Made by a program: the position numbers and the translations under genes
Part shown: piece after piece, positions 11,908-30,816 of the stretch
Position numbering within the stretch: position 1 is the stretch's first letter
How the letters are laid out: the number at the start of each line of letters is the position of its first letter
The notes under the pieces: model-generated
The model's database searches: none
Told to the model about the DNA's origin: nothing
Seen by the model: the letters and a program-made list of their open reading frames with translations, nothing else
Sequence record: SRR20825019_1786
Strand: one strand, 5' to 3'
DNA length: 32,268 bases

Positions 11908-12642
11908 CTAAAGCCGGCGGGCAAACCATATCACGCGGCCGACAATATTCACTTCCTCAATCGTCCGCTCGTAATCCCGGTAGCGCGCGCTTTCCGAGCG
12001 GATCAGCACCCGTGGCGGATCGCTGTTCGGAATATATTCGAGCTGCTTGGCAACCAGACCAATCCCGTCATGCAGCACGAAGATGCCCGGCGGAGACGGG
12101 GCCGTGCGGCTGAGATCGATCATCACCTTGTCGCCGGAATACAGCACCGGCTCCATGGAATCCCCGTCGATGGAAATCACCCGGAGATCCCGGGCCGAGG
12201 CCCGCAGCTCGTAGCGCAGCCAGCCGGCGTCGAAATACCAGTCGTTGCCGCCAGGCTCCTGCTCGAGATTGGCGCCGCCACCGGCCGAGGCGGAAATCCG
12301 CACTTCGGGAACCGCGGTGACTCTTGCCGGGTCGATGGAGCCTGCCGCGGGGCCGAGACCGGAAAAGGGCCGCATGGCCGCCGAAGGACTGTCCCCGCGG
12401 GCAGCAGAGGGCAGAGGGACCGCCCCCTGTTCCGGCCGCAGCACCGCCTCGTCGACGCCAAGATGGCGGGCCAGGGCATAGCGCACGTCTTCCGGCAGCT
12501 TTCGCGGCGTCCCGCGATTGATGAACTGGTGCAGGTAGGCGTGATTCTTGCCGCAAGCCAGCGAGGCCTTCTTCAGATCCGTCGGAGGATCACGATGCGC
12601 CACCAATTCCAGGATGCGCTTTCGCTGGATATCGAGCTTCAT
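11908..12642 (-). CDS. CI/LexA-like repressor: N-terminal HTH plus S24 autopeptidase
   Basis: HTH LKKASLACGKNHAYLHQFINRGTP, cleavage-site-like SAG, catalytic Ser in GDSMEP, Lys in LVAKQL, and C-terminal IVGRVIW. Confidence 0.9.
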   Translation of the reverse strand: MKLDIQRKRILELVAHRDPPTDLKKASLACGKNHAYLHQFINRGTPRKLPEDVRYALARHLGVDEAVLRPEQGAVPLPSAARGDSPSAAMRPFSGLGPAAGSIDPARVTAVPEVRISASAGGGANLEQEPGGNDWYFDAGWLRYELRASARDLRVISIDGDSMEPVLYSGDKVMIDLSRTAPSPPGIFVLHDGIGLVAKQLEYIPNSDPPRVLIRSESARYRDYERTIEEVNIVGRVIWFARRL

Positions 12643-12648
12643 AACCGG

Positions 12649-12677
12649 AACCTAAACTTCCGCAATCGGATGATCAA
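12649..12677 (-). promoter_or_regulatory. Putative sigma70 promoter giving a leaderless repressor mRNA
   Basis: The minus strand reads TTGATC-N17-TAGGTT-N6-ATG(12642), with no Shine-Dalgarno. Confidence 0.55.
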
Positions 12678-12691
12678 GAGTTTTTTTCCTA

Positions 12692-12720
12692 TTGCCGAAT
12701 ATTAATCTTTCGCCTAGAAC
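12692..12720 (+). promoter_or_regulatory. Putative sigma70 promoter of the DUF6362 gene
   Basis: TTGCCG (12692-12697), N17, TAGAAC (12715-12720); back-to-back with the repressor promoter. Confidence 0.5.
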
Positions 12721-12868
12721 AACCTAAGCGTCAGTGGCAAAGATGTTTTTTGACCGGGAAAATCCGATCCCGCCGCAACCTAACGCTCTGAATGCAGAAA
12801 AGCCACGCCCACATCTTTAACGACGCTCTGATCATGCGGCGCGGACCGGTCCCGACTGGAGGGAGTCA

Positions 12869-13285
12869 ATGACGAGCACGCAGATTGTGCCGGATCCAAA
12901 ATGGATCAAACATTACCTGAAAGAAGCAGCGGACACTTTGCATCGACTACCGCGGGCATATGCCAAAGCCCGCCTCACCGGATGGCCGGACGTGGCGCAA
13001 AACAGCTTTGCGCATGAATTGTCGCCGGGCAGGACACGGCCGGCATCGCCAAGCCCGGCGGCGATCGACCGGCTCGATGAAAGCCTCGGCTGGATGTTTG
13101 CCTGCGATCAGGAGGAACGGATCGTGGTCTGGGCCCGGGCCTGCGGCGTCGCCTGGCGAAAACTGGAGGATATTGACGGACGCAGCCATGTCACCCTGCG
13201 GCGGATCGAGGATCGGGGCCTGGCCGCAATCCGCGACCGCTTGCGGAAGACGCCCCCGCCTCATGTTTTTCGCAGGCCTGATTAA
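12869..13285 (+). CDS. DUF6362 family protein, putative late-gene activator/antiterminator
   Basis: EAADTL.RLP, WPD, PSPAAIDRLDE.L.W and R.VVWARA.G..W, followed by an HTH-like C-terminus. GGAGG RBS. It lies immediately before the terminase genes; the function is inferred from position. Confidence 0.75.
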   Translation: MTSTQIVPDPKWIKHYLKEAADTLHRLPRAYAKARLTGWPDVAQNSFAHELSPGRTRPASPSPAAIDRLDESLGWMFACDQEERIVVWARACGVAWRKLEDIDGRSHVTLRRIEDRGLAAIRDRLRKTPPPHVFRRPD

Positions 13286-13303
13286 TCGGCTTTTTCCGAT
13301 TAA
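13282..13303. promoter_or_regulatory. Perfect inverted repeat, candidate operator
   Basis: TTAATCGG-N6-CCGATTAA. Related ATCGG-N6-CCGAT sites occur at 12753-12768 and 13380-13395. Confidence 0.55.
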
Positions 13304-13394
13304 AGAAAACACTAACATGTTGATATAGCCATAATATTTATACTTAATCGCTAGATCAGCATACAAACAAATGACAACTATCGGAAAAAACCGC

Positions 13395-13423
13395 TTTACA
13401 GGGTTTATAAAATCGGCTAAATA
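13395..13423 (+). promoter_or_regulatory. Putative late promoter
   Basis: TTTACA (13395-13400), N17, TAAATA in a GCTAAATA context (alphaproteobacterial-type -10), within an AT-rich intergenic region. Confidence 0.45.
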
Positions 13424-13436
13424 CTATCCTATCGTC

Positions 13437-13476
13437 GGCGCTTTGTGGGAACACCCCGCAAGGCGCCTTTTTCTTT
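13437..13476 (+). terminator. Intrinsic terminator in the leader of the structural operon
   Basis: 13-bp stem GGCGCTTTGTGGG / CCCGCAAGGCGCC (2 G-U pairs), 5-nt loop, then TTTTTCTTT. It ends 11 nt before the terS ATG. Confidence 0.75.
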
Positions 13477-13487
13477 GGGTGAAACGC

Positions 13488-13955
13488 ATGGCCGAATCCG
13501 CAGCACGGACCCGCAAGAAGCGGCACTTTCTGAAAGCTCTCGCCGAAACCGGAAATGTCAGCGAAGCCGCCCGCAAGGCGCGGCTGGACCGCAGTCACGC
13601 CTATCAGATCAGGCGCCAGGATCAGACTTTCGCCGAGGCCTGGGATGAAGCACTCGATATCGCCGTCGATCTGCTCGAGGGGGAAGCCCGGAGCAGGGCC
13701 GTCGAGGGCGTGGAACAACCGCGTTTCCATCAGGGCAGGATCTGCGGGACGGTCCGGAAATATTCCGACTCGCTCCTGATGTTCCTGCTGCGGGCACACC
13801 GCCCGGAAACCTTCCGGGAGGGCAAGGATGCCGGATCAGACGACATGGAACGCCACCTCAAGGGAGCAAAGGAAAAGCTCGCCGCCCGTCTCGAGGCCCT
13901 CGCTCCGAACAATGACTCCGATGGAGCGGACCCGGTTCCTGGGCGGGATCAGTGA
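13488..13955 (+). CDS. terS: Terminase small subunit-like protein
   Basis: HTH FL.ALAETGNVSEAAR, AY..R..D..FAEAWDEA, LE.EA..RAVEG and RKYSD.LLMFLL.AHRPE; overlaps terL. Confidence 0.75.
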   Translation: MAESAARTRKKRHFLKALAETGNVSEAARKARLDRSHAYQIRRQDQTFAEAWDEALDIAVDLLEGEARSRAVEGVEQPRFHQGRICGTVRKYSDSLLMFLLRAHRPETFREGKDAGSDDMERHLKGAKEKLAARLEALAPNNDSDGADPVPGRDQ

Positions 13956-15180
13956 CGCCGAAGCCGCCCTGCTGCTGTATGACTGGCCGTTCTGGGCGCG
14001 CGAGAAACAAGTGCCGCCGGAGGGCGACTGGCGGGTCTGGCTGATCCTGGCCGGGCGCGGTTTCGGCAAGACCCGAACCGGTGCCGAGTGGATCAGGACG
14101 GCACTCGAAAGCGGCCGCTGCCAGCGCGCCGCGATCATGGGAGCCACCGCCGGAGATGTCCGTGACGTCATGGTCGAGGGCGAGAGCGGCCTGCTGGCCA
14201 TCGCCCCGCCATGGGAACGGCCGCGTTACGAGCCATCGAAACGCCGGCTGACCTGGAAATCCGGCAGTGTCGCGACCCTCTTGTCGGCGGACGATCCGGA
14301 CCAGGTGCGCGGTCATCAGTTCGACATTGCCTGGGCCGACGAAATCGCGGCCTGGCCGCAACCCGAGGCCTGGCACAATCTGATGATGGCGCTTCGGCTC
14401 GGCCCCCGGCCGCAATGCATTGCCACCACGACGCCGCGTCCAAAGGACTGGCTGAAGCGGATCGCGGAAGCCGCCGATACCCGGCTGATCCAGGGCCGCA
14501 GCACGGAAAACCGGCTCAACCTTGCCCCGGGTTTCCTGGCCGCGATGGAGAATACCTATGGCGGCACCCGGCTCGGGCGGCAGGAACTCGACGGCGAATT
14601 CCTGACCGATGTGCCGGGCGCCTTGTGGCGTCGGGACCGGCTGGAAGCCGACCGCCTGCCTCCGGGAGAACGTCCGGCTCTGGACCGCATCGTGGTCGCC
14701 ATCGATCCGGCGGCAAGTCACCATGCCGCCTCGAACGAGACCGGCATTCTGGTCGCCGGGCGCGCTGCCGAGACCGCTTTTGTACTTGAGGATCTGTCAG
14801 GGCGGCTTGCTCCGAGCGACTGGGCTGTCCGCGCCATCGACGCCTATCACCGGTATAACGCGGACCGCATCGTCGCCGAGGTCAATCAGGGCGGCGATAT
14901 GGTGGAGCAGGTGCTGCGCAGTGTCGATCCGTCCGTCCCGCTGCGTCTGGTGCGTGCCAGCCGCGGCAAACAGACTAGGGCCGAGCCGGTTGCGGCACTC
15001 TATGAGCAGGGCCGCGTCCGCCATGTCGGACGCCTTGATCTGCTTGAAGACCAGATGAGCAGCTTTACCGGAGCATCGGGCGGCAATGGCTCGCCTGACC
15101 GGGTGGATGCGCTGGTCTGGGCCCTGACCGAACTCTTGCTGAGCCGGAACCGGACGCAGACCGGGCAATTTCTGATCTGA
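13912..15180 (+). CDS. terL: Terminase large subunit (Terminase_6 type, related to the clade that includes RcGTA TerL)
   Basis: Walker A WLILAGRGFGKTR, Walker B AWADE, coupling motif TTTP, and nuclease motifs VAIDP, AEVNQGG and SPDRVDALVWA. The exact start is uncertain. Confidence 0.95.
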   Translation: MTPMERTRFLGGISDAEAALLLYDWPFWAREKQVPPEGDWRVWLILAGRGFGKTRTGAEWIRTALESGRCQRAAIMGATAGDVRDVMVEGESGLLAIAPPWERPRYEPSKRRLTWKSGSVATLLSADDPDQVRGHQFDIAWADEIAAWPQPEAWHNLMMALRLGPRPQCIATTTPRPKDWLKRIAEAADTRLIQGRSTENRLNLAPGFLAAMENTYGGTRLGRQELDGEFLTDVPGALWRRDRLEADRLPPGERPALDRIVVAIDPAASHHAASNETGILVAGRAAETAFVLEDLSGRLAPSDWAVRAIDAYHRYNADRIVAEVNQGGDMVEQVLRSVDPSVPLRLVRASRGKQTRAEPVAALYEQGRVRHVGRLDLLEDQMSSFTGASGGNGSPDRVDALVWALTELLLSRNRTQTGQFLI

Positions 15181-15226
15181 GCCTGAATATATGACCTTTG
15201 GGGCCAACCACTGGGGGAGGTGGGAG

Positions 15227-15928
15227 ATGCCTGTAATCGCGTACCTCGAAACAAGCGTCGGCCCCGGCACCGGGCAGCCGCACGACATAGCCCTCGTTCA
15301 GGCCCTGCTCGCCCACATCAAGGACCTGTTCGGGCACCCCTACTGGCCGGACAGAATCGATGGCATGGCCAGCGATGCCCTGCTGGAGGCGATCAACCGC
15401 TTTCAGGAAGAATTCGGCCTGCTCGATACTGCCGGTGAGGATATCCGGACGGTGATCTCGCCTGCCTCCGTGACTTTTCAATGCCTGCGGGAAGCAACGG
15501 CCCCCGCCCTCTCCGGTCTGCGCGCCGTTACCGGCACCGCGACCCTCTATATTCCGCCCCGTTGCGGCGAGCAGGTCCTGGGGGTGATGGCCGCGAAGCT
15601 ACGTAGCCTGGGCTTTGAAGGCAACACCGCTCTGGGGCGGCGGCTGGCGGCCCTTGCCGAACGGGTGTTCGACAGGCACCGCTTCCTGATCCGCTTTCCG
15701 GCACCGGAAGACAGCAACAGCCGGACACAGCGGGTCCGTGTGCATTTTCACGGCCTGAAATGGCTGACCGCTCAGGGGCGGCTGACCTCCCCTGAGCAGC
15801 CGCACAGCCCGGTTCCCGAAGCACTCTGGTCCCTTGTCACGGCGGAAACCCGCCCGGTCGGCGGGCTGATACCGGAGCAGATAGACTATGCCGGCTGCCG
15901 GGAACTCTGGCTCAGGCATGACGGATAA
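15227..15928 (+). CDS. Hypothetical protein with N-terminal peptidoglycan-binding-like helical domain
   Basis: GGAGG RBS before ATG 15227. SVG......DIALVQALL....IDG......AI.RFQ resembles the PG_binding_1 pattern; the C-terminal half is not recognised. Confidence 0.55.
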   Translation: MPVIAYLETSVGPGTGQPHDIALVQALLAHIKDLFGHPYWPDRIDGMASDALLEAINRFQEEFGLLDTAGEDIRTVISPASVTFQCLREATAPALSGLRAVTGTATLYIPPRCGEQVLGVMAAKLRSLGFEGNTALGRRLAALAERVFDRHRFLIRFPAPEDSNSRTQRVRVHFHGLKWLTAQGRLTSPEQPHSPVPEALWSLVTAETRPVGGLIPEQIDYAGCRELWLRHDG

Positions 15929-15951
15929 GTATACCGCAGAAAGGCCACACA

Positions 15952-17157
15952 ATGAGTTCCGACGTCGCAACTCCGAATGCCGCCTATCAGGACATGGCCA
16001 CCGATTGGGAGCTGGTCCACGATCTGCTCGGCGGCACCCGCATCATGCGGCAACGCGGAGAGAAATGGCTGCCCCGGGAACCCGGCGAGAGCCGCGAAGC
16101 CTATGCCATCCGGCTGAACCGGAGCGTGCTGTTCAACGGGCTTCAGCGCACCATCCAGACTCTGCTTGGCAAACCGTTCCACCGTCCGGCCAGCCTGACC
16201 GGCGCCCCGCCGGACGCACTGGCGGCGTTGGCGGACAATGTCGATCTCGGTGGCCGCAACCTCACGGTTTTCGCCCGCGATGTCATGCAGGCCGCACTGA
16301 CGGACGGCCTCACGCATATCCTGGTGGACCATCCCCGGGCCGGCGAGGCGGGAAAAGACACCGCCCGGCCCTATCTCGTTCATATCCACGCGGCGGACCT
16401 GATCGGCTGGCGAGGCCAGGAAAGCGGCATCGGCAGCGCCCTGACCCGGGTCCGCATCCGGGAGACCGTGAACAGAACATCCGGAACCTGGGACGACAGG
16501 GCGGAGCGCCAGATCCGGGTGCTCTATCCCGGCCGCTTCGAAATCTGGCGGCGCGGCGGTGACGGTCTTGGCCCCTGGCGGCGCGACGATGCGGGAGAGA
16601 CAAGCCTCGACTGCATTCCGCTCGTCACCATCTATGCCAACCGGGCCGGTTTCATGACCGCCCGTCCGCCGCTGATGGATCTGGCCTGGCTCAATCTGGC
16701 GCACTGGCAATCGGCAAGCGATCAGCGCCACATCCTGCATGTCGCCCGGGTGCCGATCCTGTTCGGCCGCAACCTGACCCTGCCCGAGGACGGCCTGGCG
16801 CTTGGCCCGAACCGGATCGTGACCGGCGAGGGCGAAAGCGCCGATCTGCGTTTTGTCGAGCATAGCGGTGCCGCAATCGCCGCCGGCCGGCAGGATCTGA
16901 TCGACCTCGAAGACCGGATGGCGGTCATGGGCCTCGATCTGATGACAAGACGCGGCGGCGCGGGATCGACAACGGCGACGGCGCGGGCCATAGACGCGGC
17001 GGAAAACAACACATCCCTGCTCGGCCTGATCCATGCCGTCGAGGACGGGCTGAGCACCGCCTTCGGCTTCATGGCGGACTGGCTTGGTGTTCCAAGAAGC
17101 GAGGCCGGGCGAGTCGCCCTGCACCGGCAGGACACGCAGGACCTTTCGGCCGGCTGA
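15952..17157 (+). CDS. Portal protein, DUF4055 family
   Basis: W.LV.DLLGGT..MR..GE.WLP..P.ES..AY..RL, PPL.DLA.LNL.HWQS.SDQ..ILH.ARVPIL and FVEHSGAAI.AGR; position after terL. Confidence 0.88.
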   Translation: MSSDVATPNAAYQDMATDWELVHDLLGGTRIMRQRGEKWLPREPGESREAYAIRLNRSVLFNGLQRTIQTLLGKPFHRPASLTGAPPDALAALADNVDLGGRNLTVFARDVMQAALTDGLTHILVDHPRAGEAGKDTARPYLVHIHAADLIGWRGQESGIGSALTRVRIRETVNRTSGTWDDRAERQIRVLYPGRFEIWRRGGDGLGPWRRDDAGETSLDCIPLVTIYANRAGFMTARPPLMDLAWLNLAHWQSASDQRHILHVARVPILFGRNLTLPEDGLALGPNRIVTGEGESADLRFVEHSGAAIAAGRQDLIDLEDRMAVMGLDLMTRRGGAGSTTATARAIDAAENNTSLLGLIHAVEDGLSTAFGFMADWLGVPRSEAGRVALHRQDTQDLSAG

Positions 17158-17218
17158 AGATCGAAGCTGTTGCAACCCAATGATTGCAGTGGCACAGGAT
17201 GCAACAAAACCATCTTTA

Positions 17219-17239
17219 CCGATTGATAACCTCAATCGG
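17219..17239. promoter_or_regulatory. Perfect inverted repeat upstream of cheZ
   Basis: CCGATTGA-N5-TCAATCGG. Confidence 0.4.
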
Positions 17240-17271: not shown

Positions 17272-18075
17272 TTGCCTAGGTATATGAAAACGCCGTACAG
17301 CATCGAAACGCGCCGCGCCCCCAATGCGGGCGCGAAGACTGGCGCGGTTGCGAAAAATGGTGCGGGCACCAAGCACAATACCGGCAGCAGAAATGCTCTG
17401 GTCGCCGAGAGTGTCGTCACCGCCGCCGAGGTCGATCTGTCCGAAGTGATGGAGGCGATCCGTTCTCTGGAACGCAAGATCGACGGGAAGCAGCCAACAC
17501 CGGTAGCAGCAGATAAAGATACGGATACTGCAGCGGTTGTCGGCAAGCAGGATCAGAAGATCGAGGAGATCCGGACAGAGATCTCCGAGATCGCTGGCCG
17601 TATCCAGGCGACCAAGGTCGAGATTGCCGCCCTGCGCCACCCTCTCTCGAACGACGACAAATTCGAGTCGGCGACGGAGGAGCTCAGCGAGATCGTGCGC
17701 CAGACCGAGACCGCGACCGACGGGATCATGACCACCGCCGAGAAAATCGAGGAAGTCGTTGCCGACCTCCTGACGGTGACCACGGACGAATATGCGAATT
17801 CGCGGCTTGGCGACATCGCGGATTTGATCACGGGAATATACGAAGCCTGTAACTTCCAGGATCTGACCGGCCAGCGCATCAACAAGGTGATCAAGGTTCT
17901 CAATTATATCGAGGAACGGGTCGACGCGATGATGGCCACCTGGGATATCCGCGAGTTCCAGACCATGCCGCTGCCGCAGGACATCACCCGCAAGGACGAG
18001 GATCTGACCCTGAGCGGGCCGATGGCGGAAGGCCAGGCCATCTCGCAGGACGAAATCGACGCCCTGTTCGACTGA
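17272..18075 (+). CDS. cheZ: CheZ-family protein phosphatase (alphaproteobacterial type)
   Basis: EL..IV..TE.AT..IM, catalytic EACNFQDLTGQRI.KV (DxxxQ), and the C-terminal CheY-binding peptide SQDEIDALFD. AGAGGAG RBS 7 nt before TTG 17272. Confidence 0.9.
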   Translation: MPRYMKTPYSIETRRAPNAGAKTGAVAKNGAGTKHNTGSRNALVAESVVTAAEVDLSEVMEAIRSLERKIDGKQPTPVAADKDTDTAAVVGKQDQKIEEIRTEISEIAGRIQATKVEIAALRHPLSNDDKFESATEELSEIVRQTETATDGIMTTAEKIEEVVADLLTVTTDEYANSRLGDIADLITGIYEACNFQDLTGQRINKVIKVLNYIEERVDAMMATWDIREFQTMPLPQDITRKDEDLTLSGPMAEGQAISQDEIDALFD

Positions 18076-18159: not shown

Positions 18160-18768
18160 ATGCCGTTGCCCGCCGAAACAGACTCTCTCGACGCCGTCCC
18201 GGAAGCGGTGCGCGCCTTCTACGTTGAAACGGACGAGGGCCGGTATCGCCTCGATGCCGACGGCGTGGAAGACGTCTCCGGCCTGAAATCCGCGCTGGAA
18301 AAGGAACGCGCCGCCCGGCGGGAGCTGAAAGCCGAACTGGACGCGCAAAGCACCGGAGAGGTGTCCCTCACCCAGGTGAAACTGGAAGCCGCCCTGATCG
18401 CCGCCGAGGCTCGCGCCGCGATCCATGCCGAGCACGGCATCGCCGAGCTGTTGCTGCCCGTCATCGTGCCCCGGCTGATCCTGGCCGAGAGCGAGGCCGG
18501 AATCTCGGTGACAATCCGTGGCGAAGGCGACGAGCCGGCGGAAAATCCGGAAGACGGCACCCCGCTCACCCCGCGCGATCTGGTGCGCGAGCTGCAGGCC
18601 AGCCCGGTCTATGGCCGGGCCTTCGAGCCACCCGCACGCGGCGGCAGCGGCGCGCCAAGCCTCGGACAGGCAGGCGGCAGCGAGAGCGTCATCGCGCTGA
18701 GCGACCAGAACGCGCTCGACCGCAACATCGCCGCCATCGCCAGCGGCCGGATACGGGTCTCCCGCTAA
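18160..18768 (+). CDS. Capsid scaffolding protein
   Basis: LD.VPE..R.FY.E...G.Y.LD..G.EDVSGLKSALEKER, acidic coiled coil, and C-terminal F....GGSGA. Directly upstream of the capsid gene, with a GGAG RBS. Confidence 0.75.
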   Translation: MPLPAETDSLDAVPEAVRAFYVETDEGRYRLDADGVEDVSGLKSALEKERAARRELKAELDAQSTGEVSLTQVKLEAALIAAEARAAIHAEHGIAELLLPVIVPRLILAESEAGISVTIRGEGDEPAENPEDGTPLTPRDLVRELQASPVYGRAFEPPARGGSGAPSLGQAGGSESVIALSDQNALDRNIAAIASGRIRVSR

Positions 18769-18897
18769 CCCCGGCCACTTCACACATTTTAACCTGACAC
18801 AACCGGCGGCCGGGATGGCCGGCGGCGCTTTGTGCTGCGCGCGGGCCGGGCAGCACGAACCCGACATGCCTTTTTCACACATCGAGGAGCCTTCCAA

Positions 18898-20049
18898 ATG
18901 GCAAATGCCATGACCGAAATCATGCCGAAAATCCTGGCCCGCGGCCTCTTGGCCCTGCGCGAGCAGGCGATCATGCCGCGGCTGGTGAACGCGGACTATT
19001 CGAACGACGCCGCCCGCAAGGGCGACACCGTGGATGTACCGCTGCCGAGCGCCATCACGGCGAGCGACGTCACCCCGTCGAACACCGCCCCGCAGCCGGA
19101 CGACATCACCATCTCCAAGGTCCAGGTTCCGCTGGATAAATGGAAGAAGGCGGGATTCTACCTCACGGACAAAGAGGTGATGGAGATAGACCGGAACGAG
19201 AGTTTCGTGCCGATGCAGATGAGCGAGGCGATCCGGGCGCTGGCCAATGCGGTCAACGCCTCCGTCCATGCCGAGTACAAGGGCGTCTTCGGCCTTGTCG
19301 GCGCGGCGGGCGTGACGCCGTTCGGCTCCGACGTGTCCGACGCCACCTCCGCCCGGAAGCTGCTGAACAAGCAGCTCGCCCCGCGTGGCGACCGGCGGGC
19401 CGTGCTGGATTTCGATGCCGAGGCCAACGCTTTGGCCCTCGCGCCCTTCTCCGATGCGGAGAAAGTCGGCTCCGCCTCGGTGAAAATCGACGGCGAGATC
19501 GGCCGCAAGTTCGGAATCGAATGGTACGCCGATGACGGGGTGCTGACCCATGCCGCCGGCACAGCCAGCGACAGCGGCAGCTTTACCATCACCGCCAATG
19601 TGGCGAGCACCGGGGCAACAAGTATCGCCCTGAAATCCGATATAGGCAGCCCGACCCTGAAGGTAGGCGATATCGTCAGCTTCGCCGGACATGCCCAGAG
19701 TTACGCGGTGATGGCGGACGCGGTTCTCGATGGCAGCGGCGTCTCGGTTGCCATTAACCCGGCCCTGAAAGCGGATGTCGCCGCCGATGCGGCAGTGACC
19801 GTCACGCCGAGCCATGTGGTCAATCTGGCCTTTCACCGGGATGCCTTCGCGCTGGCCATGCGGCCGCTCAGCGCCGGCACCCAGGATCTTTCGCTCGGTA
19901 ACCAGATCCTGTCCATGACAGACGCCGAGACGGGCATCTCCCTGCGGCTGGAAATCTCCCGCCAGTACAAGCAGACGGTCTGGGAATTTGACGTTCTCTG
20001 GGGCGTGAAACTGGTCCGTCCGGAACTCGCGGTCCGCATCGCCGGTTAA
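18898..20049 (+). CDS. Major capsid protein, P22 coat protein-like
   Basis: GAGGAG RBS; L..LRE..IM.RLVN.DY....A.KGDTV.VP.P, a beta-rich insertion domain, NLAFHRDAFALA.RPL and FDVLWG.K.VRPELAVRI.G. Confidence 0.9.
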   Translation: MANAMTEIMPKILARGLLALREQAIMPRLVNADYSNDAARKGDTVDVPLPSAITASDVTPSNTAPQPDDITISKVQVPLDKWKKAGFYLTDKEVMEIDRNESFVPMQMSEAIRALANAVNASVHAEYKGVFGLVGAAGVTPFGSDVSDATSARKLLNKQLAPRGDRRAVLDFDAEANALALAPFSDAEKVGSASVKIDGEIGRKFGIEWYADDGVLTHAAGTASDSGSFTITANVASTGATSIALKSDIGSPTLKVGDIVSFAGHAQSYAVMADAVLDGSGVSVAINPALKADVAADAAVTVTPSHVVNLAFHRDAFALAMRPLSAGTQDLSLGNQILSMTDAETGISLRLEISRQYKQTVWEFDVLWGVKLVRPELAVRIAG

Positions 20050-20155: not shown

Positions 20156-20452
20156 ATGTCCGAGCCTGAAGCCGACCTGTTGCCGACCGTCACGCTGCAG
20201 CACCGCTACGGCGAGCAGCGCCTGCTCGCGAACCGGGCGGATTATATCCACGAGAAAGACGGCCGGTTCAGCAACTGGCTGCTGGCGGACGACGATCCTG
20301 AAGTGCAGCCGCCACCCTGCCAGTCCACTCCAGCTCATGTCCCGGCGCCTGCTGTTGCACCCGTTGCAGCCATAACAGCGCCAAGCGCTCCCGCGCTTCC
20401 GCCCGCGCCCGTTCATTCGGGCAAGCGGCGGCGCCGGGGGAGGCGGAAATGA
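20156..20452 (+). CDS. Small hypothetical virion-associated protein with Pro/Ala linker and basic tail
   Basis: GAAGGGG RBS; ATGA overlap with the next gene; ends KRRRRGRRK. Confidence 0.6.
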   Translation: MSEPEADLLPTVTLQHRYGEQRLLANRADYIHEKDGRFSNWLLADDDPEVQPPPCQSTPAHVPAPAVAPVAAITAPSAPALPPAPVHSGKRRRRGRRK

Positions 20453-21289: not shown

Positions 21290-21682
21290 ATGTCCTTCAC
21301 CAGTGCCCGGCGCGCGGTCGAGAGCTTTTTCGGCGCCAACTGGCTGCTCACCCCGATCGCCTTCGAGAATGTCGCCTTCACCCCGCCGGAGGACGGATGC
21401 TGGGTCAAGCTGATGATCCTGCATGAGCAATCGGAGCAGGCCGCGCTCGGCAGCCCGGCCCTGCACCGCTACCGGGGCCGCATCCTGATCTACTGCTTCA
21501 CCCCGCTTGGCGGCGGCGCCCAGCAAGCGAGCACTCTCGCCGATGCCGCCGCCGCCCTGTTCGACGGCGCTCTGATCGCGGGTCACGTGCTGCTGCCGCC
21601 TGAAATCAGCGAGGACGAGAATATCGACGGTGCCTACCGGGCAACCGTGGCCATCCCGTTCTGGCGCGACGAAATCCACTGA
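21290..21682 (+). CDS. Tail terminator protein (DUF4128-like)
   Basis: PIAFENV.F.PP....WV, G...I..F.P.G.G and V.IPF; position before the tail tube. Confidence 0.75.
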   Translation: MSFTSARRAVESFFGANWLLTPIAFENVAFTPPEDGCWVKLMILHEQSEQAALGSPALHRYRGRILIYCFTPLGGGAQQASTLADAAAALFDGALIAGHVLLPPEISEDENIDGAYRATVAIPFWRDEIH

Positions 21683-21725
21683 GTTTCAACCCAGTCCCCC
21701 AAACCACACGCCCAAGGAGACCACC

Positions 21726-23703: not shown

Positions 23704-26673
23704 ATGCCGATCCGCCGCCTGCCCGAGGACGGTGCCGCCGCCGGTGTTTACACACTGCTGGAGGCCATCGACACCATGCCGCCGGTCCTCAGCCGCGCGG
23801 AATCCGCCTTCGACCGGCTGGCCGGCAGCCTCACCGGAACGATCGACCGGATCGGCGCGGCGCTCGACACACTTGACCGGCGGAGCCTGCCCCCAGCCAC
23901 ACCCGGGGTACAAAATCCGTACATTCAGGACGCTTCCTTCAGCTCCGCCGACACCGATCTTCTCTCCCTCGGTGAAGACCGGCTGCATCTGGAAGATCTG
24001 ATCACCGAATCCCTGGTGGAGCAGCTGACCGCGTCGGAGAACATCGCATCCGCCCAGGAAGATGCCGCCAGACGCAGCGATACCGCCTGGGGCACGCTCT
24101 CCGACGATATCGTCGGGGATTTCAACCGGGCCTTTTCCGGCATTTCGGAGAACGGGGCGAAAACCTTTTCCTCCCTGTGGCAGAACATGGCGGCGGGACT
24201 TGACCAGACCATCTCCGCCATCGACTGGGATGGCCTGTTCGGCCCTGTTGCCGGACAATTCGCCGATGCCGCATCCGGCCTTCTCGGCTCTTTCGGTGGT
24301 AACGGCAGCGGCGGGTTCTCCGGACTGTTCGAAGCCGGCGGCTCGCTGCTTTCCAGCTTTCTGCCCGGTATGGGCGGCGGCGGAGCGGCAGGCGGCTCCG
24401 TGCTCTCGGGCATTACCGGCTCGCTTGGTAGTACGGGGGTAATCGGCGCCATCGCCACCGCCGCCGTCTTTGGCCTGAACGAACTGTTCAAGGACGAGGA
24501 TTATCCTTTCGCCAGGGCGGAGATCGGTATTCAGAACGGCACCCCCAGCGCCGGAAGCTCGATGGAGCTGGATGGCGGACCGCTGGACAATATCCTGCAA
24601 TTGCAGGACCGGGTGCTAACGGCCCTCGATGCGATGACCAACCGGCTTGGCGCATCCTTCTCCGGCGATGTGAGTAATTTTCTGCAGATCGGCTATTCCA
24701 GCGGCCGCAAGTCCATCCTGCCGTCCGGCTACTTCGTCGCCGGTCTGGAGGCAGGCGGCGATTTCAACAGCGGTGCCGACTTCACCGGGATCGAGGATGA
24801 AGAGGAGCTGATCGGGCGCGCCATCGAACTGGCCTTCGCCAAAGCAGCGCGGGACGGTACCCTGACCGGGCTCTCGGACGATGCCGGGGCGGATTCCCGA
24901 GGTCAGAAAACATTCGAAGCGGGCATCGAAAAGCTGCTCGCCGCACCGTTCGAAAGCCTCGAGACATCCCTGCGCCGGATCGATTTCCTCGCCAGCTTCG
25001 AGGAGACCGTTGCGCTCTTCAGGGACGGCACTGAAAGCGTCGATGCCTATACCCGCTCCCTCAGGGCCCAGCGCGCGGCTCTTGAGGAAGCGGGCCAGGC
25101 CGCCGCAGATGATGCCTTCGAGCCGATCCGTCTGTTCATGGAAGATGCCGCCCTGCTGTTCAGCGGCGGCGGGGAGCAGGACGCCGCGTCCGCCTTCCGC
25201 CTCGATCAGGCGGGCGACACGGTTCGGGGGATGACCCGCGATCTGCTCGACACGCTCTCCCTGAATGGCATTGAAGCGCCACTCGAAGGATACGCCTTGC
25301 TGTACGAGCAGCAGGCCGCCCAGATCACCGCCCTGGTCCCGGCACTGGAAGCGCTGAACCAGGAACTGGCAGCGCTCGGGCTTGAGACCATCGATGTCGC
25401 CGCCGAAATCAATGCCGCCAACGAGGCATTGAGCGCGGAAGTCCGGACCCTTTTCCTGAAGGACCTCGATGCCGGGCTTTCTCCCGAGCGGGCGGCCGCG
25501 CAACAGGCGATGGATGAAAGGGACAGCCTGCTGCAACAGGCCGAACAGCTCGGCTACGGCCAGGATCAGGAGATCCTTGGCAAGATCGAGGCGAACTTCA
25601 CCGCGGAACTCGACCGGCTCGGCTTTACGGTCGGCGAAAGTGGCAATTTATTGCAGACTTTCGCCGACAGCATCGAGGCGGCCACCGCCGGGCTCGACCG
25701 GCAGATCACGGCGCAGGAAAATTCGGTCGGGGAATTCGTCCGCCTGACGGAGAGCCTTGCAACCGCCCGGCAGGATTTTGCCCTCGACAGCTCCCTCTCA
25801 CCGCACGCACCGCTGGACCGGCTGACACAGGCGAGGACCGGGTTCGAGGAACTTGCCGCCGCGTCCGCCGATGGCGATCTTGAGGCGCGAGAGGACCTGG
25901 CGGCCAGCGCCCGCACCTACCTGACATTGGCACGCGAGGTTCATGCCTCCAGCGAGGCCTATACCGATATCTTCTATCAGGTCGATGCGGTGCTTGCCTC
26001 CGCCCTGCATGACACGGAAGCCCAGGTCACGGCGGCCGAGCGCCAGCTGGACGTTCTGATCGAAATCCGGGACCGGCTCGGCCCGCCCAGCGCCACGGGC
26101 GGCGCCTTGGAATTCCGCTCGGCCGGCGGCGGACAGTATCTTTCGGAAAGCGGCGGGCCGGTCGGGGCCGGGTACGATCTCGGCTACAACCCGGAACGCA
26201 ACATCGCCATCCTGACGGCCCTCGATGCCGCAGGCCTACCCCTGCCGAGCGGGTTTGGCGAAGGCCAGCTCTCCCGGCTCAGGGCGGATAATCAGGCCGT
26301 GGATGCGATTGTCACCGCCATGGGCTTCGCCACCGGCGGGATTATGACCGCGAACGGCCCGGCCCAGACCGCGCCATACGATGGCGGCATTACCAGCGAC
26401 GTGTCCGTCGCCCTGTTCGGTGAAGGCAGTCAGCCGGAAGCCTATGTGCCCCTGCCGGACGGCCGCTCCATTCCCGTCACGCTCAGTCTGCCCGCCAACG
26501 ACGATAGCGGCGACACCAGCGAGACACGGGATGCCCTGCGCCTGCAACGGGCGGACAGCCGCGCGCTGGTGCAGGAACTGAGGAGCCTCAACCGGGAAGT
26601 CGCCGCGCTCAGAGACGATAATGAACGGCTCAGCCGCGTGCTCGGCCGGGCCTTCTCGCGCCAAACCGCCTGA
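23704..26673 (+). CDS. Tape measure protein
   Basis: 989 aa, Ala-rich and helical, with a Gly-rich hydrophobic segment and C-terminal GFATGG...FGEG..PEAYVPLPDGRSIPV; follows the chaperones. Confidence 0.85.
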   Translation: MPIRRLPEDGAAAGVYTLLEAIDTMPPVLSRAESAFDRLAGSLTGTIDRIGAALDTLDRRSLPPATPGVQNPYIQDASFSSADTDLLSLGEDRLHLEDLITESLVEQLTASENIASAQEDAARRSDTAWGTLSDDIVGDFNRAFSGISENGAKTFSSLWQNMAAGLDQTISAIDWDGLFGPVAGQFADAASGLLGSFGGNGSGGFSGLFEAGGSLLSSFLPGMGGGGAAGGSVLSGITGSLGSTGVIGAIATAAVFGLNELFKDEDYPFARAEIGIQNGTPSAGSSMELDGGPLDNILQLQDRVLTALDAMTNRLGASFSGDVSNFLQIGYSSGRKSILPSGYFVAGLEAGGDFNSGADFTGIEDEEELIGRAIELAFAKAARDGTLTGLSDDAGADSRGQKTFEAGIEKLLAAPFESLETSLRRIDFLASFEETVALFRDGTESVDAYTRSLRAQRAALEEAGQAAADDAFEPIRLFMEDAALLFSGGGEQDAASAFRLDQAGDTVRGMTRDLLDTLSLNGIEAPLEGYALLYEQQAAQITALVPALEALNQELAALGLETIDVAAEINAANEALSAEVRTLFLKDLDAGLSPERAAAQQAMDERDSLLQQAEQLGYGQDQEILGKIEANFTAELDRLGFTVGESGNLLQTFADSIEAATAGLDRQITAQENSVGEFVRLTESLATARQDFALDSSLSPHAPLDRLTQARTGFEELAAASADGDLEAREDLAASARTYLTLAREVHASSEAYTDIFYQVDAVLASALHDTEAQVTAAERQLDVLIEIRDRLGPPSATGGALEFRSAGGGQYLSESGGPVGAGYDLGYNPERNIAILTALDAAGLPLPSGFGEGQLSRLRADNQAVDAIVTAMGFATGGIMTANGPAQTAPYDGGITSDVSVALFGEGSQPEAYVPLPDGRSIPVTLSLPANDDSGDTSETRDALRLQRADSRALVQELRSLNREVAALRDDNERLSRVLGRAFSRQTA

Positions 26674-26683
26674 AGGAACAAAC

Positions 26684-28192: not shown

Positions 28193-28198
28193 CAACCG

Positions 28199-29050: not shown

Positions 29051-30084
29051 TGACCTGGTCCGTGACCATCGGCGACCGCACTTTTACCGACGCCAATCTG
29101 GACGGCAACGCCTACGCCGAGGAAGAAACCGGCTTCCCCGCCATCGTCCGTGCGGTTGCCGAGGAAACCGCCGTCCTGAAGGGCGCGGCAGGGCTTTCCG
29201 CTTCCCCGCTCACCCCCGCGACCGGCCCCGTCACCTTTACCCTTCTCGCCACTCCGCCGCCCGGCTGGAAGGCCGGACAGGTGTTGCGGGTCACCAGTGC
29301 GGGCGAGGCGACACACCTCATGGCCGGCACGATCACAACGCTCGACGGCACGGCCCTGACCATGGAGGTCAGCTTCGCCGAAGGCGCTACCGAACGGAGC
29401 GACTGGGTGCTGACCTATCCGCTTTTCACCGCCTTCCTCGAACGCGCTGGCGGGACAATAACCGGAGCCCTGAAGATCGACGATCATTCCCCGGCCCTGA
29501 ACGCTCCGCCCGGCCAATACCTCAATCTCCGGATGATGCGGGATGATCTGCCGCATCTGGATTTCGGCCTCGACGATACCCCCCTTTCGGATACGGCAGG
29601 CGGCAGCCTGATCTTCCTGCACACCTTCGACAATAGCGGTGCCTGGACAGGCCGGCCTTTGGAGATCAACCGGGCAACCGGCGAGATCAAGACCATGGGC
29701 CTGAACCTTCAGGGCTATGCGCTGGCCGACGGGAACCTGCGCGGCACCCGGATGAGTATCGAAGACCTCGGAGAAATCGGCACCGGAACTGTGTCTATCG
29801 ATGCGTCACGCTGGAACGCCCTGGCCGTGACCCTGACCGGAAATGTCGGTTTCGATTTCGCGGCACTCGGCCTCGGCTTCGAATACACGCGCAGATTCCT
29901 CATCACCCAGGGCGGCGCCGGAGGGTTCGCGCCGTCATGGACCCTCGGCGGCAGCGCAGGTGGAGTCAAACGCATCGGCGGGGTCCCGAACTATGCAGGC
30001 CAGGCGCCGGGCGTTGTGACCCGTGTCACCGCCGAGGTCTGGGGCAACCAGCTCCGGCTCTGGGAAGCGGAAGAAAGTCCGTAG
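29050..30084 (+). CDS. Tail fibre / receptor-binding protein candidate
   Basis: Coupled to the previous gene; beta-rich; L.R.GGTITG.L fibre motif and a C-terminal ID......VTLTGN...ITQGG.GG..W domain. Confidence 0.65.
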   Translation: MTWSVTIGDRTFTDANLDGNAYAEEETGFPAIVRAVAEETAVLKGAAGLSASPLTPATGPVTFTLLATPPPGWKAGQVLRVTSAGEATHLMAGTITTLDGTALTMEVSFAEGATERSDWVLTYPLFTAFLERAGGTITGALKIDDHSPALNAPPGQYLNLRMMRDDLPHLDFGLDDTPLSDTAGGSLIFLHTFDNSGAWTGRPLEINRATGEIKTMGLNLQGYALADGNLRGTRMSIEDLGEIGTGTVSIDASRWNALAVTLTGNVGFDFAALGLGFEYTRRFLITQGGAGGFAPSWTLGGSAGGVKRIGGVPNYAGQAPGVVTRVTAEVWGNQLRLWEAEESP

Positions 30085-30133
30085 TTCCAAAGGCGCCGCC
30101 TATTCGATTTTCCCACAAGATGAGGAGTTGCCC

Positions 30134-30385
30134 ATGCAAGTCAGATCGATTCTGGCTGCCTTGAGCCTGCTGGCGGCATTGCCGGGATGTGCCGCCCCCG
30201 ATGCCGCTGCGGAGATTGAAATCCGCAGAACCAATGCCCTCGCCGCCATCCGCGCCGTGCGCGACGGCTATTGCGCCCTGTCCCCCGCTGTCCGGGAACG
30301 GTTGCGGGATGCCGGGGACATCGATCCCGCGCTGGACAGTTGTACCACCCCTGCCGAAACCAATCCCGAGGAGACAAAGCAATGA
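30134..30385 (+). CDS. Small lipoprotein (possible spanin/lysis accessory)
   Basis: GAGGAG RBS; signal peptide with lipobox LPG-C; two further Cys residues. Confidence 0.6.
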   Translation: MQVRSILAALSLLAALPGCAAPDAAAEIEIRRTNALAAIRAVRDGYCALSPAVRERLRDAGDIDPALDSCTTPAETNPEETKQ

Positions 30386-30558
30386 CCTTCAACACAAGCT
30401 GGCTGTTGGACCGTTTAAGTGAACGAAGCACCTGGATCGGCCTGACGGGAATTCTCACGGCCGCCGGAGTGTCTCTGGAGCCTGAGATCGGTGAGGCAAT
30501 CGGGGCCGTCGGCATCGCCCTTGCCAGTCTGATCGCCATGCTGACAAAGGACCGCTGA
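30382..30558 (+). CDS. Holin-like small membrane protein
   Basis: 58 aa with two TM segments and RL.E.STW.GL; GAGGAG RBS; ATGA overlap. Confidence 0.65.
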   Translation: MTFNTSWLLDRLSERSTWIGLTGILTAAGVSLEPEIGEAIGAVGIALASLIAMLTKDR

Positions 30559-30579
30559 CGCGGCGAAGGGAGTGCCTCC

Positions 30580-30816
30580 ATGGACCAGGACGATGCCCGC
30601 CGCGTGGTGCGGGCGACATTGACTGAGCTCGGCCTCGACGTCACCTCGCCGGAGCGGGTGATCCAGGCGCAGCACGATTTTGCCTATCTGCGCCATCAGC
30701 GGAATCTGTCGGAGAAGATCGGCGTCGGTGTCCGGCTGATAATGCTGACCAGCATCATCAGTGCCGGGCTCGCCACCATCTGGCTCGGTATCCGGCACTC
30801 CCTGATCCTGAAATAG
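30580..30816 (+). CDS. Small phage-type protein with C-terminal TM helix (lysis-cassette associated)
   Basis: V..TL..LG.D...P....Q.DF.YLR plus a C-terminal hydrophobic helix; GGGAG RBS. Confidence 0.6.
   Translation: MDQDDARRVVRATLTELGLDVTSPERVIQAQHDFAYLRHQRNLSEKIGVGVRLIMLTSIISAGLATIWLGIRHSLILK

Follow-up and report, generated by a model that had tools for sequence, protein, structure and literature searches.

A vertically inherited siphovirus-like particle locus in Nisaea and related genera, a candidate gene transfer agent of independent origin

The window analysed here, a stretch of 32,268 nucleotides from sequence record SRR20825019_1786, belongs to a Nisaea species and carries at 11908-30816 an S24 repressor gene, a DUF6362 gene and some 20 genes in one orientation that resemble siphovirus head, tail and lysis genes. 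We consider it very probable that this cluster is a particle locus passed down vertically and maintained by selection. But is it also a gene transfer agent (GTA)? An intact gene set at one inherited site, with no means of self-replication or mobility, gives the impression of a virus that the host has tamed, perhaps for DNA exchange. The whole reading, a domesticated siphovirus locus whose particles would package and transfer host DNA as a GTA of independent origin, is a proposal that we consider about as likely as not. No published account of this Nisaea locus was found in the literature searched.

The cluster measures about 19 kb, of which the late operon takes about 17 kb (Table 1). A first-pass annotation had described co-oriented morphogenesis genes with two regulators, and every part it named was found in place; its Terminase_6 TerL, DUF4055 portal, scaffold, P22-like coat, Phage_tube_2 tail and 989-aa tape measure are all matched by families. 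The inventory had passed over the PG_binding_1-like gene, the CheZ-family gene and the three small lipoprotein/membrane ORFs at the 3' end, and ahcY proved to lie on the minus strand. ORF coordinates give gaps of 92 bp to ybaN and 27 bp to DUF3108, in agreement with the annotation, and the GC content is that of the flanks, host-like. The claimed lack of integrase, excisionase, att, tRNA and replication genes also stood. Scans of the 31 window ORFs against Pfam and PHROG families returned no integrase, excisionase or replication family, a tRNA search of the window found none, and none of the largest 20 of at least 60 direct-repeat families brackets the cluster as an att-like repeat. PF00589 integrase is absent within 20 kb of the element in 5/5 genomes from four genera. 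Has an early region been lost? In a related genome (G013), a prophage remnant has ParB_N, DUF1376 and DnaA_C genes between the S24 repressor and DUF6362, whereas in the window only 226 bp separate the two. Because the remnant carries these genes at that position, the window cluster can be described as missing its early module, which supports the earlier wording that this region is cleanly missing.

Table 1. Features of the cluster, in window coordinates, with the evidence for each.
Position	Strand	Feature	Evidence
11908..12642	-	CI/LexA-like S24 repressor	Peptidase_S24 7.5e-8; phrog_4 1.3e-25
12643..12868	.	divergent regulatory region, blocks common to all 10 Nisaea species	10-species alignment
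12869..13285	+	DUF6362 protein, putative late-gene activator	PF19889 8.3e-22; phrog_6836
13286..13487	.	putative late promoter/operator region	palindromes; alignment of 10 Nisaea species
13488..13955 (ORF open from 13371)	+	small terminase subunit TerS	phrog_4044 1.2e-36
13828..15180	+	large terminase subunit TerL	Terminase_6N and 6C; alternative ATGs 13912, 13921
15191..15928	+	PG_binding_1-like N-terminal part, C-terminal half without family	PF01471 E 0.007
15952..17157	+	portal (DUF4055)	PF13264 1e-37; phrog_145 1e-100
17272..18075	+	CheZ-family protein between portal and scaffold	PF04344 36.8 bits (cut-off 30.7)
18160..18768	+	scaffolding protein	phrog_206 2.8e-20
18832..20049	+	major capsid protein, P22 coat-like	PF11651 9.7e-28; phrog_283 1.3e-82
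20156..20452	+	small Pro/Ala-rich protein	without family match; partly conserved
20449-20919	+	head-tail adaptor Ad1 (Pfam 'DnaT_2' match)	neck, PHROG/Pfam
20916-21278	+	head closure Hc1	neck, PHROG/Pfam
21290-21682	+	tail terminator	neck, PHROG/Pfam
21630..22895	+	tail tube (Phage_tube_2)	PF18906 2.1e-49; PDB 8xan_B 2.1e-27
22944-23402	+	tail assembly chaperone G	phrog_313 2.6e-29
to 23698	+	GT extension of tail chaperone	-1 frameshift site A AAA AAC at 23342
23704..26673	+	tape measure, 989 aa from ATG 23704	phrog_1292, phrog_16823
26621-28192	+	distal tail gene dt1	phrog_8917
28199-29050	+	distal tail gene dt2	phrog_8610
29050-30084	+	distal tail gene dt3, no family match	dN/dS 0.04-0.21
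30134-30385	+	lipoprotein with LPGC lipobox	hydropathy, lipobox
30382-30558	+	membrane protein, ATGA overlap with preceding lipoprotein ORF	hydropathy, start codons
30580-30816	+	membrane protein	phrog_6420, hydropathy

How might such an operon be controlled? The repressor combines a DNA-binding part at its N terminus with an Ala-Gly cleavage site and the catalytic Ser (GDSMEP) and Lys, which suggests SOS control. These self-cleavage motifs are kept in all but one of the 17 aligned orthologues, the exception being G015, without Ser and Lys, and the gene evolves at dN/dS 0.08-0.17. Alignment and motif search place an operator-like sequence, ACCGGGAAAATCCGAT, at 12753-12768 within the divergent regulatory region. 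In a predicted model (pLDDT 77) the C-terminal half of the DUF6362 protein resembles sigma-factor region 4; the folds it matches best are those of ECF sigma, sigma region 4 and Q21, all non-significant (E>0.6, best 0.68). DUF6362 is present in one of 50,697 phage records, and in the G013 remnant it sits immediately 5' of the packaging genes. Downstream of it in the window, a palindrome ATCGG-N6-CCGAT at 13285-13300 is nearly invariant in the 10 Nisaea species and a second site, ATCGGAAAAAACCGCT at 13380-13395, is invariant across them. Searching two complete genomes showed that three of the five distinct sites found genome-wide fall at the element. The TerS gene probably begins at the ATG of position 13488 and not where the ORF opens, at 13371: the phrog_4044 match begins at residue 39, and the 39 codons upstream are probably a conserved regulatory site. 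Regulation of the cluster looks more like that of PBSX or an SOS prophage than that of RcGTA.

A DNA-binding-type region survives in TerS (HTH_28, E 0.003); packaging might for that reason be site-directed and not random. As for the protein encoded after TerL, its G015 homologue matches PF01471 at 1.8e-5, Atlas leads reach a score of only 0.76, and forms of 563-570 aa stand in its place in other genera. The CheZ-family gene, restricted to genera g1 and g9 and covered by RNA-library contigs at 17285-18090, is probably an accessory, moron-like gene. The neck genes are supported by phrog_477, phrog_161 and phrog_179 together with PF20557 and PF13554. The slippery site of the tail chaperone is present in 15/15 genomes, with an extension of 79-109 aa in 14 and of 25 aa in G067 alone. 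A Phage_tube_2 tube, a frameshifted chaperone and a 989-aa tape measure indicate a siphovirus-type tail; the cluster has no sheath family, as a contractile tail would require. The dt3 product is the probable receptor-binding part. No endolysin domain was recognised in the cluster, and the three last ORFs form a putative holin and spanin-type lysis cassette; comparable small membrane/lipobox ORFs come after dt3 in genera g2 and g33.

The cluster occupies one site in 10/10 Nisaea species genomes. Eight copies are complete, every cluster gene being matched without an internal stop, and two have deletions. The gene order in the window is TauE-AsmA-rumA-PCuAC-ybaN-[element]-DUF3108-ahcY, and the orthologous site is found in five genera beyond Nisaea, hence in at least six, with coats 70-77% identical between them. 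Thus G019 shows TauE-AsmA-rumA-hydantoinase-[element]-DUF3108, G015 TauE-AsmA-[element]-ahcY, and g2 and g33 hydantoinase-[element]; in G022 (AsmA-rumA-[remnant]-DUF3108-ahcY) the remnant consists of the regulators only. Across the family, 23 of 63 genomes have the coat, with a single match per genome (in G001 it is split over two contigs). The synteny expected among relatives is therefore seen, but not everywhere intact, given the two Nisaea deletions and those in several other lineages. G003 has lost the coat-to-tail genes; in G011 the regulators alone remain and a CBASS-like island replaces the other genes; G066 has an internal deletion; and G069 and G070 lack both regulators and have a TniA/B/Q transposon adjoining. 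In the 32-row host clade that includes all element-bearing rows, nine rows are without a coat match, eight of them unexplained losses and the ninth G011. The locus is dispensable. From dt3 onwards, the genes vary from lineage to lineage.

Do the genes evolve as if they mattered? For genus g1, the pairwise dN/dS (NG86, which saturates between genera) of structural and regulator genes other than orf30023 is 0.03-0.35, with dS up to about 1, similar to the flanking rumA, ybaN and DUF3108. For g2 and g33 the range is 0.05-0.49, again purifying selection. Terminase, portal and coat are under the same constraint as the tail genes (coat 0.04-0.17; distal tail genes dt1, dt2 and dt3 0.04-0.21). Element dS rises in proportion to host rpoB dS. 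The element tree has 11 of 19 splits in common with the host tree, which is a quick search of a single gene (rpoB), where 0.17 are expected and 2000 permutations gave at most 3. Every genus is monophyletic in this comparison, and discordance is limited to shallow nodes and to the deep position of G015 and G019, which has weak support. Among Nisaea species, recombination tracts cross the element and extend into the flank. Synteny, tree agreement, purifying selection and non-RcGTA parts together bear out the evolutionary half of the domestication reading that the first-pass annotation had proposed.

Could the cluster instead be a prophage, active or dying? It was rejected as a temperate prophage, having no integrase or excisionase, att repeats or early/replication module. 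A functional temperate phage with these genes unrecognised or elsewhere has hardly any chance of being right: it could appeal to the ORFs without a family (orf20156, dt3 and the C-terminal half of orf15191), but the repressor and DUF6362 adjoin, unlike in the related remnant, and thus leave no room for early genes between them. The fixed locus, the co-divergence with hosts and the one coat match per genome also stand against it, as does IMG/VR, where element-type loci are confined to contigs of at most 25 kb and the next viral contigs, with coats at most 62% identical, have little else in common. Nor is a decaying, functionless remnant, conserved for lack of elapsed time, much more credible. 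Deletions and replacements in several lineages and the shortened chaperone extension of G067 would fit decay, but we strongly disfavour it given some 20 stop-free genes in eight Nisaea species at the divergence and constraint described above, similar constraint in g2 and g33, and an orthologous locus across at least six genera. A killer particle of the PBSX type, an SOS-induced weapon against related strains in which DNA packaging is incidental or serves assembly only, is unlikely but deserves more weight. It would explain why a repressor and a sigma-like activator accompany structural genes in the absence of integrase and replication genes, as in PBSX, and also why dt3 and the genes beyond it are variable. 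Yet the tail is non-contractile and sheathless, with a Phage_tube_2 tube and a long tape measure, and terminase, portal and coat, needless for a pure tail weapon, are constrained like the tail. F-type tailocins have lost their heads, and the cluster was excluded from this class (tail genes only) by its present and constrained terminase, portal, scaffold and coat. Phage satellites (PICI and capsid-forming PICI) were excluded likewise, for the cluster has no integrase or replication genes and has a full tail module.

A self-transducing defective phage has a somewhat better, though still small, chance. Here a headful packaged in situ, comprising the 19 kb cluster and flanking host DNA, would spread or re-seed the element in kin through homologous recombination at its usual site, and selection would act partly on the element and not on the host alone. 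The size of related phages favours it. Coat, portal and TerL have no phage record above 52% identity, and the best match comes from a different phage each time: the Vibrio phage MAR10 and SSP002 group for the coat (48%), Nitrincola 1M3-16 and Pseudomonas AAT-1 for the portal (42%), and Brevundimonas Strzyga and a Desulfofustis phage for TerL (52%). Coat relatives at 46-48% identity are phages of 75-79 kb, those at 58-62% are viral contigs of 50-62 kb, and portal relatives are phages of 57-82 kb. The nearest lytic siphoviruses share structural families and head-to-tail gene order with the Nisaea cluster but, unlike it, have genomes of 45-82 kb with full replication modules, and none has its S24 repressor and DUF6362 module. 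Self-transduction also draws on the HTH-type region retained in TerS, on the shallow tree discordance with the weak deep placement of G015 and G019, and on the recombination tracts; these tracts, however, take in host flanks and so may be ordinary recombination. Against it, genus-level co-divergence and the fixed locus show no spread past close kin, and the deleted copies in G003 and G011 remain unrepaired.

A domesticated locus that may exchange host DNA has several known counterparts. Two marks of GTAs are found here: a structural cluster without replication, integration or excision genes of its own, and vertical inheritance under purifying selection. GTA particles would further carry largely random pieces of host DNA, too short for the full gene set, into recipient cells. 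Like RcGTA and CcGTA (Rhodobacter capsulatus and Caulobacter), it is a chromosomal head-tail cluster lacking integrase and replication genes, inherited and selected in Alphaproteobacteria, lost in some lineages, with a dedicated activator before the structural operon. RcGTA is controlled by CtrA and quorum sensing. The hallmark Nisaea parts scanned belong to other families, namely a P22-like coat with scaffold, a DUF4055 portal, Terminase_6, Phage_tube_2 and a 989-aa tape measure; the RcGTA head-tail cluster is marked by an HK97-type capsid, protease and portal and by the g12-g15 families. The RcGTA markers PF09931 and PF13547 are absent from 5/5 genomes (a Caulobacter positive control was positive), and membership of the RcGTA type (Rhodogtaviriformidae) is ruled out by these markers and by the part families, as the description of non-RcGTA parts had implied. 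In its layout the cluster resembles PBSX of Bacillus subtilis. As far as the available part of the source describes it, PBSX is a defective prophage whose site is conserved and in which a repressor and a sigma-type late activator (Xpf, which drives the late genes) precede the terminase, head, tail and lysis genes; this prophage is SOS-induced and packages random 13 kb pieces of host DNA (PMC8347963). PBSX is a precedent for the logic of repressor, sigma-like activator and late operon. It differs in its contractile tail, Xre repressor and small 13 kb head, where the Nisaea element has a siphovirus tail and a self-cleaving S24 protein; the hosts are unrelated, and the likeness is one of layout, with the link from DUF6362 to sigma region 4 a fold-level lead. 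Bartonella BaGTA, Brachyspira VSH-1 and the Faecalibacterium GTA, separate domestications of tailed phages into particles carrying host DNA in the available parts of the sources (PMC9953437, PMC12946183), indicate that the GTA kind arose repeatedly; belonging to other host phyla or orders, they are compared with the Nisaea cluster by description only.

We picture the following course of events. An ancestor common to Nisaea, Thalassobaculum and other related genera would have acquired a siphovirus-derived locus in its chromosome. This locus would have lost its integration and replication genes and been inherited with the host thereafter, while selection kept its function. On DNA damage, active RecA would lead the S24 repressor to cleave itself at Ala-Gly, as its conserved residues suggest. 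The derepressed, sigma-region-4-like DUF6362 protein would then turn on the late operon of about 17 kb, a step to which gene order, the fold lead and the conserved ATCGG-N6-CCGAT sites point. Terminase, portal, scaffold and coat would make DNA-filled heads, as the complete and selected gene set implies, and neck, tube, frameshift chaperone, tape measure and distal tail genes a long non-contractile tail. With neither excision nor replication, the terminase would package headfuls of chromosomal DNA. The small lipoprotein/membrane ORFs, perhaps with the PG-binding-like protein, might free the particles, which would inject host DNA into kin cells, making the locus a GTA of independent origin.

In BaGTA, VSH-1 and the Faecalibacterium GTA the packaged DNA is described as shorter than their own gene sets. 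Does the Nisaea cluster obey the same limit? Coat relatives have genomes of 50-79 kb, so its head may hold the entire 19 kb cluster, unlike GTAs packaging about 5-15 kb, the range given in the available part of PMC9632790. The rule that no GTA can carry its own genes may thus fail for this cluster. It is a tentative and rather unlikely idea that the head keeps the capacity of its phage relatives, about 50 kb or larger; damage-induced headful packaging in situ would then move the locus with tens of kb of chromosome into kin, where homologous recombination would rescue it. If true, such a self-carrying GTA would be a stable intermediate between a lateral-transduction prophage and a classical GTA and would answer the objection that GTAs cannot persist through their own transfer.

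The independently domesticated DNA-packaging particles characterised to date are few, and each informs the passage from virus to host organelle of gene exchange. This candidate lies in marine Alphaproteobacteria that are culturable and non-pathogenic, with type strains among the Nisaea and Thalassobaculum records. Its comparative record is unusually clean: there is one orthologous site, element and host have diverged together across six or more genera, and naturally deleted variants can be used as controls. The switch, a self-cleaving repressor with DUF6362 and a palindromic site, is simple and testable. The reading would assign DUF6362 a function, and the locus would allow a direct test of self-transfer by a GTA-like element with a full-size head.

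The cluster proposed by the first-pass annotation does lie between ybaN/DUF454 and DUF3108, as ORF calling and family scans show, and the ORF coordinates give the same gaps of 92 bp and 27 bp to the flanking genes. Its S24 repressor is on the minus strand, separated by a 226 bp divergent region from the plus-strand genes. These run in the order DUF6362, TerS, TerL (Terminase_6N + 6C), a PG_binding_1-like gene (orf15191), a DUF4055 portal, a CheZ-family gene, scaffold and P22-like coat, followed by a small Pro/Ala-rich ORF, the adaptor Ad1 (a Pfam 'DnaT_2' match), Hc1, a tail terminator, a Phage_tube_2 tube, a tail chaperone, a 989 aa tape measure, the three distal tail genes (dt1 to dt3) and three small lipoprotein/membrane ORFs. 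Is there anything left of a mobile phage? Just as had been claimed, none of the 31 window ORFs scanned belongs to an integrase, excisionase, cro or replication family. A tRNA search of the window found none, of at least 60 families of direct repeats none of the 20 largest brackets the cluster, and GC stays at 59-69% throughout the window, with no compositional break at the cluster edges. A PDB sequence search with the coat gave no match. Two very long antisense ORFs run across the portal, CheZ-like, scaffold and coat genes and are most likely artefacts of GC-rich DNA.

Positions of features in the window and in fetched loci (L-numbers, each with its own coordinates)
Sequence	Position	Strand	Feature
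Window	2-1234		Methyl-accepting chemotaxis signalling domain fused to PilZ domain, left edge
Window	11405-11815	minus	ybaN/DUF454, left flank gene
Window	15886-18138	minus	Antisense ORF, 750 aa
Window	17272-18075	plus	CheZ-family gene
Window	17285-18090		Part covered by Logan contigs of two RNA-library runs
Window	18145-19836	minus	Antisense ORF, 563 aa
Window	30844-31647	minus	DUF3108, right flank gene
L020 (G010)	6834-8156	minus	TPR-repeat gene
L020 (G010)	8904-9911	minus	TPR-repeat gene
L034 (G011)	8157-12338		Genes after the retained regulators
L050 (G069, G070)	19-4241		TniA, TniB, TniQ
L052 (G069, G070)			TniA, TniB, TniQ
L053 (Thalassobaculum fulvum)	2268-5402		PG_binding_1-like frame with Ntox44 end
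L157 (Ralstonia phage YO164_3)	19376-19720		DUF6362
L160 (G022)	5274-11589		Orthologous site with regulators
L164 (G013)	6231-15265		Prophage remnant

With the coat as query, matches were found in 13 of 41 relatives: 8/10 in Nisaea, the genus of the window, 5/15 in the family's other genera and 0/16 in the other families of the class. Across the whole family in the dataset, which holds one genome per species and many MAGs, the coat is present in 23 of 63 genomes (22/44 of high quality) and 7 of 17 genera, always as one match per genome except in G001, a fragmented assembly with the gene divided between two contigs. All eight coat-bearing Nisaea genomes have the whole cluster. In the seven fetched Nisaea loci it sits between ybaN and DUF3108/ahcY (the latter where the fetched stretch reached that far), in G001 the flanks share the two contigs that carry the coat pieces, and the two coat-less Nisaea genomes, G003 and G011, hold remnants at the same site. 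The flanks of other genera, compared by tblastn with named flank proteins, interlock with those of the window, which read TauE-AsmA-rumA-PCuAC-ybaN-element-DUF3108-ahcY (ahcY being on the minus strand). The order is TauE-AsmA-rumA-hydantoinase-element-DUF3108 in G019 (genus g9), TauE-AsmA-element-ahcY in G015 (g5) and hydantoinase-element in g2 and g33. The synteny comparison thus finds the same site in Nisaea and interlocking flanks beyond it, which points to a probable single ancient insertion followed by local rearrangement. Outside the window, where tyrosine recombinases alone were searched for, 5/5 genomes from four genera are free of a PF00589 integrase up to 20 kb from the cluster.

Is the cluster maintained, or is it decaying in place? 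Pairwise NG86 estimates against the window give dN/dS of 0.03-0.35 for the Nisaea structural and regulator genes (orf30023 excepted), a range comparable with the 0.07-0.26 of the flanking rumA, ybaN and DUF3108, so that the cluster is under purifying selection. Its dS in Nisaea is of the same order as that of the flanks, and the few in-frame stops all lie upstream of true starts. Constraint is likewise seen within g33 and g2, where genome pairs with a higher rpoB dS also have a higher element dS; between-genus ratios are unreliable, as dS is saturated. In a host tree built on rpoB from 40 genomes of the family (one gene, quick search), all 22 element-bearing rows fall inside one 32-row clade, and the remnant of genus g12 lies just outside it. 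All genera come out as groups in the 24-row tree built from eight concatenated element proteins, as does the backbone (g10,(g8,g2,g33)). For the 22 shared taxa the two trees agree in 11 of 19 splits, where 0.17 are expected and the maximum in 2000 label permutations is 3; this statistic is descriptive, as kin are not independent. Congruence with the host phylogeny, as far as a one-gene host tree gives it, is therefore borne out. The disagreements concern shallow nodes within Nisaea and g33, together with G015 and G019, whose placement has weak support. Homologous recombination explains the disagreements at shallow nodes, because identity tracts cross the element interior and run on into the host flank. 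Profiles of window positions 8800-32268 against four Nisaea genomes (G005, G006, G007 and G009) are mosaic: in G005 the left flank and head half look like G006 (95-99%), the tail half and right flank like G007 (93-99%). Such mosaic identity indicates interspecies homologous recombination across the locus.

The locus is dispensable, since several lineages carry deletions or replacements. G003 has kept repressor through scaffold and lost coat through most of the last ORF; its retained head genes show pairwise dN/dS of 0.13-0.26, above equally complete near relatives, which might reflect relaxed selection after loss of the tail or the greater distance of G003. All that is left in G011 is the repressor, DUF6362 and the conserved leader ahead of TerS; the genes that follow encode an IrrE-type M78 peptidase, a SMODS nucleotidyltransferase and a patatin phospholipase, so that its structural set appears to have been replaced by a CBASS-like defence set. 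G066 has an internal deletion from coat to dt2. In G069 and G070 the 12 kb before TerS hold neither repressor nor DUF6362, and at the regulators' expected place, directly upstream of TerS, these genomes carry TniA (rve, Mu-transposase C), TniB and TniQ of what looks like a Tn7/Tn5053-like transposon; their structural genes are still under purifying selection. The coat-less G022 (g12) has AsmA-rumA-repressor-DUF6362, about 5 kb of unrecognised, family-less ORFs with a Sel1-repeat gene, and DUF3108-ahcY at the orthologous site. In G062, G063 and G057 the regulators are followed by the contig end, G057 also retaining part of TerS. In at least three lineages, then, the regulators have survived longer than the structural genes.

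How might the particle be switched on? The Ala-Gly site, GDSMEP serine and lysine of the repressor are kept in 16 of 17 aligned orthologues, G015 having lost Ser and Lys; together these residues are the signature of RecA-stimulated self-cleavage, as in LexA and CI. The C-terminal helix-turn-helix-like block of DUF6362 is invariant. Its structure model (pLDDT 77) matches ECF sigma factors, isolated sigma region 4 domains and the antiterminator Q21 in the PDB, all at E >0.6 and none significant, with a TM of 0.78 on the target and a probability of 0.98 against SigR region 4; a sigma-like role is a lead only. The prophage remnant of G013 places DUF6362 at the early/late junction, because there it directly precedes packaging genes: the order there is S24 repressor, ParB_N, DUF1376, DnaA_C, DUF6362, two ORFs, SU10-type portal and host aroA, and this remnant shows what was removed in the element. 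G013 has a second DUF6362 match of equal score elsewhere. After the DUF6362 stop codon lies the palindrome ATCGG-N6-CCGAT, with a near-copy 95 bp downstream that is invariant in 10/10 Nisaea species and a third variant in the divergent region. A search of two complete genomes for the W6 form of the motif gave five distinct sites, of which three lie at the element; the reversed control pattern was found nowhere. Further downstream, 15/15 genomes retain the tail chaperone's canonical -1 slippery site, A AAA AAC; in 14 of these the frameshift extension has 79-109 aa, and in G067 it is truncated to 25 aa.

Some genes are less easily placed. The CheZ-family gene (36.8 bits, above cut-off) lies inside the head module between portal and scaffold and is limited to g1 (Nisaea) and g9. 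Contigs from two RNA-library runs cover it almost exactly, though DNA is possible in such libraries, and in one run the spanning contig has adapter sequence at both ends. The same runs also cover the repressor, DUF6362, TerL and Hc1 in part; contigs give no ranking of expression, and gaps in their coverage carry no weight as to a repressed or induced state. Taken together, the last three ORFs look like a holin and spanin set: the first encodes a lipoprotein, the next a membrane protein coupled to it by ATGA, and the third another membrane protein. Small ORFs of similar kind follow dt3, the probable receptor-binding part, in g2 and g33. The high pairwise dN/dS of 'orf30023' (0.45-0.66 against the four nearest species) arises because its first 37 codons precede the lipoprotein ATG. 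In G010, two opposite-strand TPR-repeat genes lie near the right end, one between dt3 and the lipoprotein ORF, the other past the last element ORF at the position of DUF3108 in the window; extra genes in that region are a feature of the more distant Nisaea species. No endolysin domain was recognised anywhere in the cluster, whose sole cell-wall-related candidate is the PG_binding_1-like protein; an Atlas search with it gave weak PG_binding leads (score 0.76). In other genera this protein has 563-570 aa and differing C-termini, which suggests a variable cargo or ejection protein. In the Thalassobaculum fulvum element the corresponding frame, which lies between TerL and portal, has an Ntox44 polymorphic-toxin domain (9e-15) as its last part and may be over-extended at its 5' end.

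The element is without a close free-living relative in the two viral collections searched. Seven IMG/VR loci, each on a contig of 9.8-25 kb, have coats of at least 72% identity. After these, viral contigs (50-62 kb where long) reach at most 62%, and what they have in common with the element is limited to the coat plus weak matches in portal, tube or adaptor. Among 50,697 phage records the best identities are 48% for coat, 42% for portal and 52% for TerL, each in a different phage with a genome of 45-82 kb. DUF6362 occurs in one of these records, the 25 kb, unverified Ralstonia phage YO164_3 (32% identity), which was rejected as a relative since nothing else is common.

What, then, does the particle carry? 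The class that includes GTAs and PBSX is defined by a complete, constrained packaging, head and tail set that is chromosomally fixed and can neither excise nor replicate. Because the element has such a set, without excision or replication genes, a damage-induced particle that would package host DNA ranks first among the readings. PBSX argues for the same reading: as described in PMC8347963, it is induced by the SOS response, has a sigma factor for its late genes and packages random host DNA of 13 kb, the logic proposed for the element. That the particle would act instead as a PBSX-type killer seems improbable. Somewhat unlikely, too, is that it carries the element itself, although the coat and portal relatives fill heads of 50-82 kb and the cluster measures only 19 kb; if true, this would conflict with the usual statement on cargo size and self-propagation, namely that a GTA takes up about 5-15 kb of DNA into its particles and is unable to propagate itself (in the account of PMC9632790).

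The RcGTA markers PF09931 and PF13547 are absent in 5/5 genomes tested (Caulobacter served as positive control), so by those two markers the hosts have no co-resident classical alphaproteobacterial GTA, and the cluster stands apart from RcGTA, as first proposed, with its DUF4055 portal, Terminase_6, P22-like coat and Phage_tube_2 tube. In the literature searched as full text (supplementary tables apart), no paper links Nisaea or Thalassobaculum with gene transfer agents: two contain both the name Nisaea and the term, apparently on other subjects, and none pairs the term with Thalassobaculum; full-text searches found DUF6362 mentioned nowhere, and broader work on new or domesticated GTAs held nothing on this family. 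New GTA types are still being reported, for example in PMC12946183. The kind of element is already known, and our claim is limited to what was tested; transfer of packaged host DNA would be the most likely use to which these bacteria put the proposed particle.
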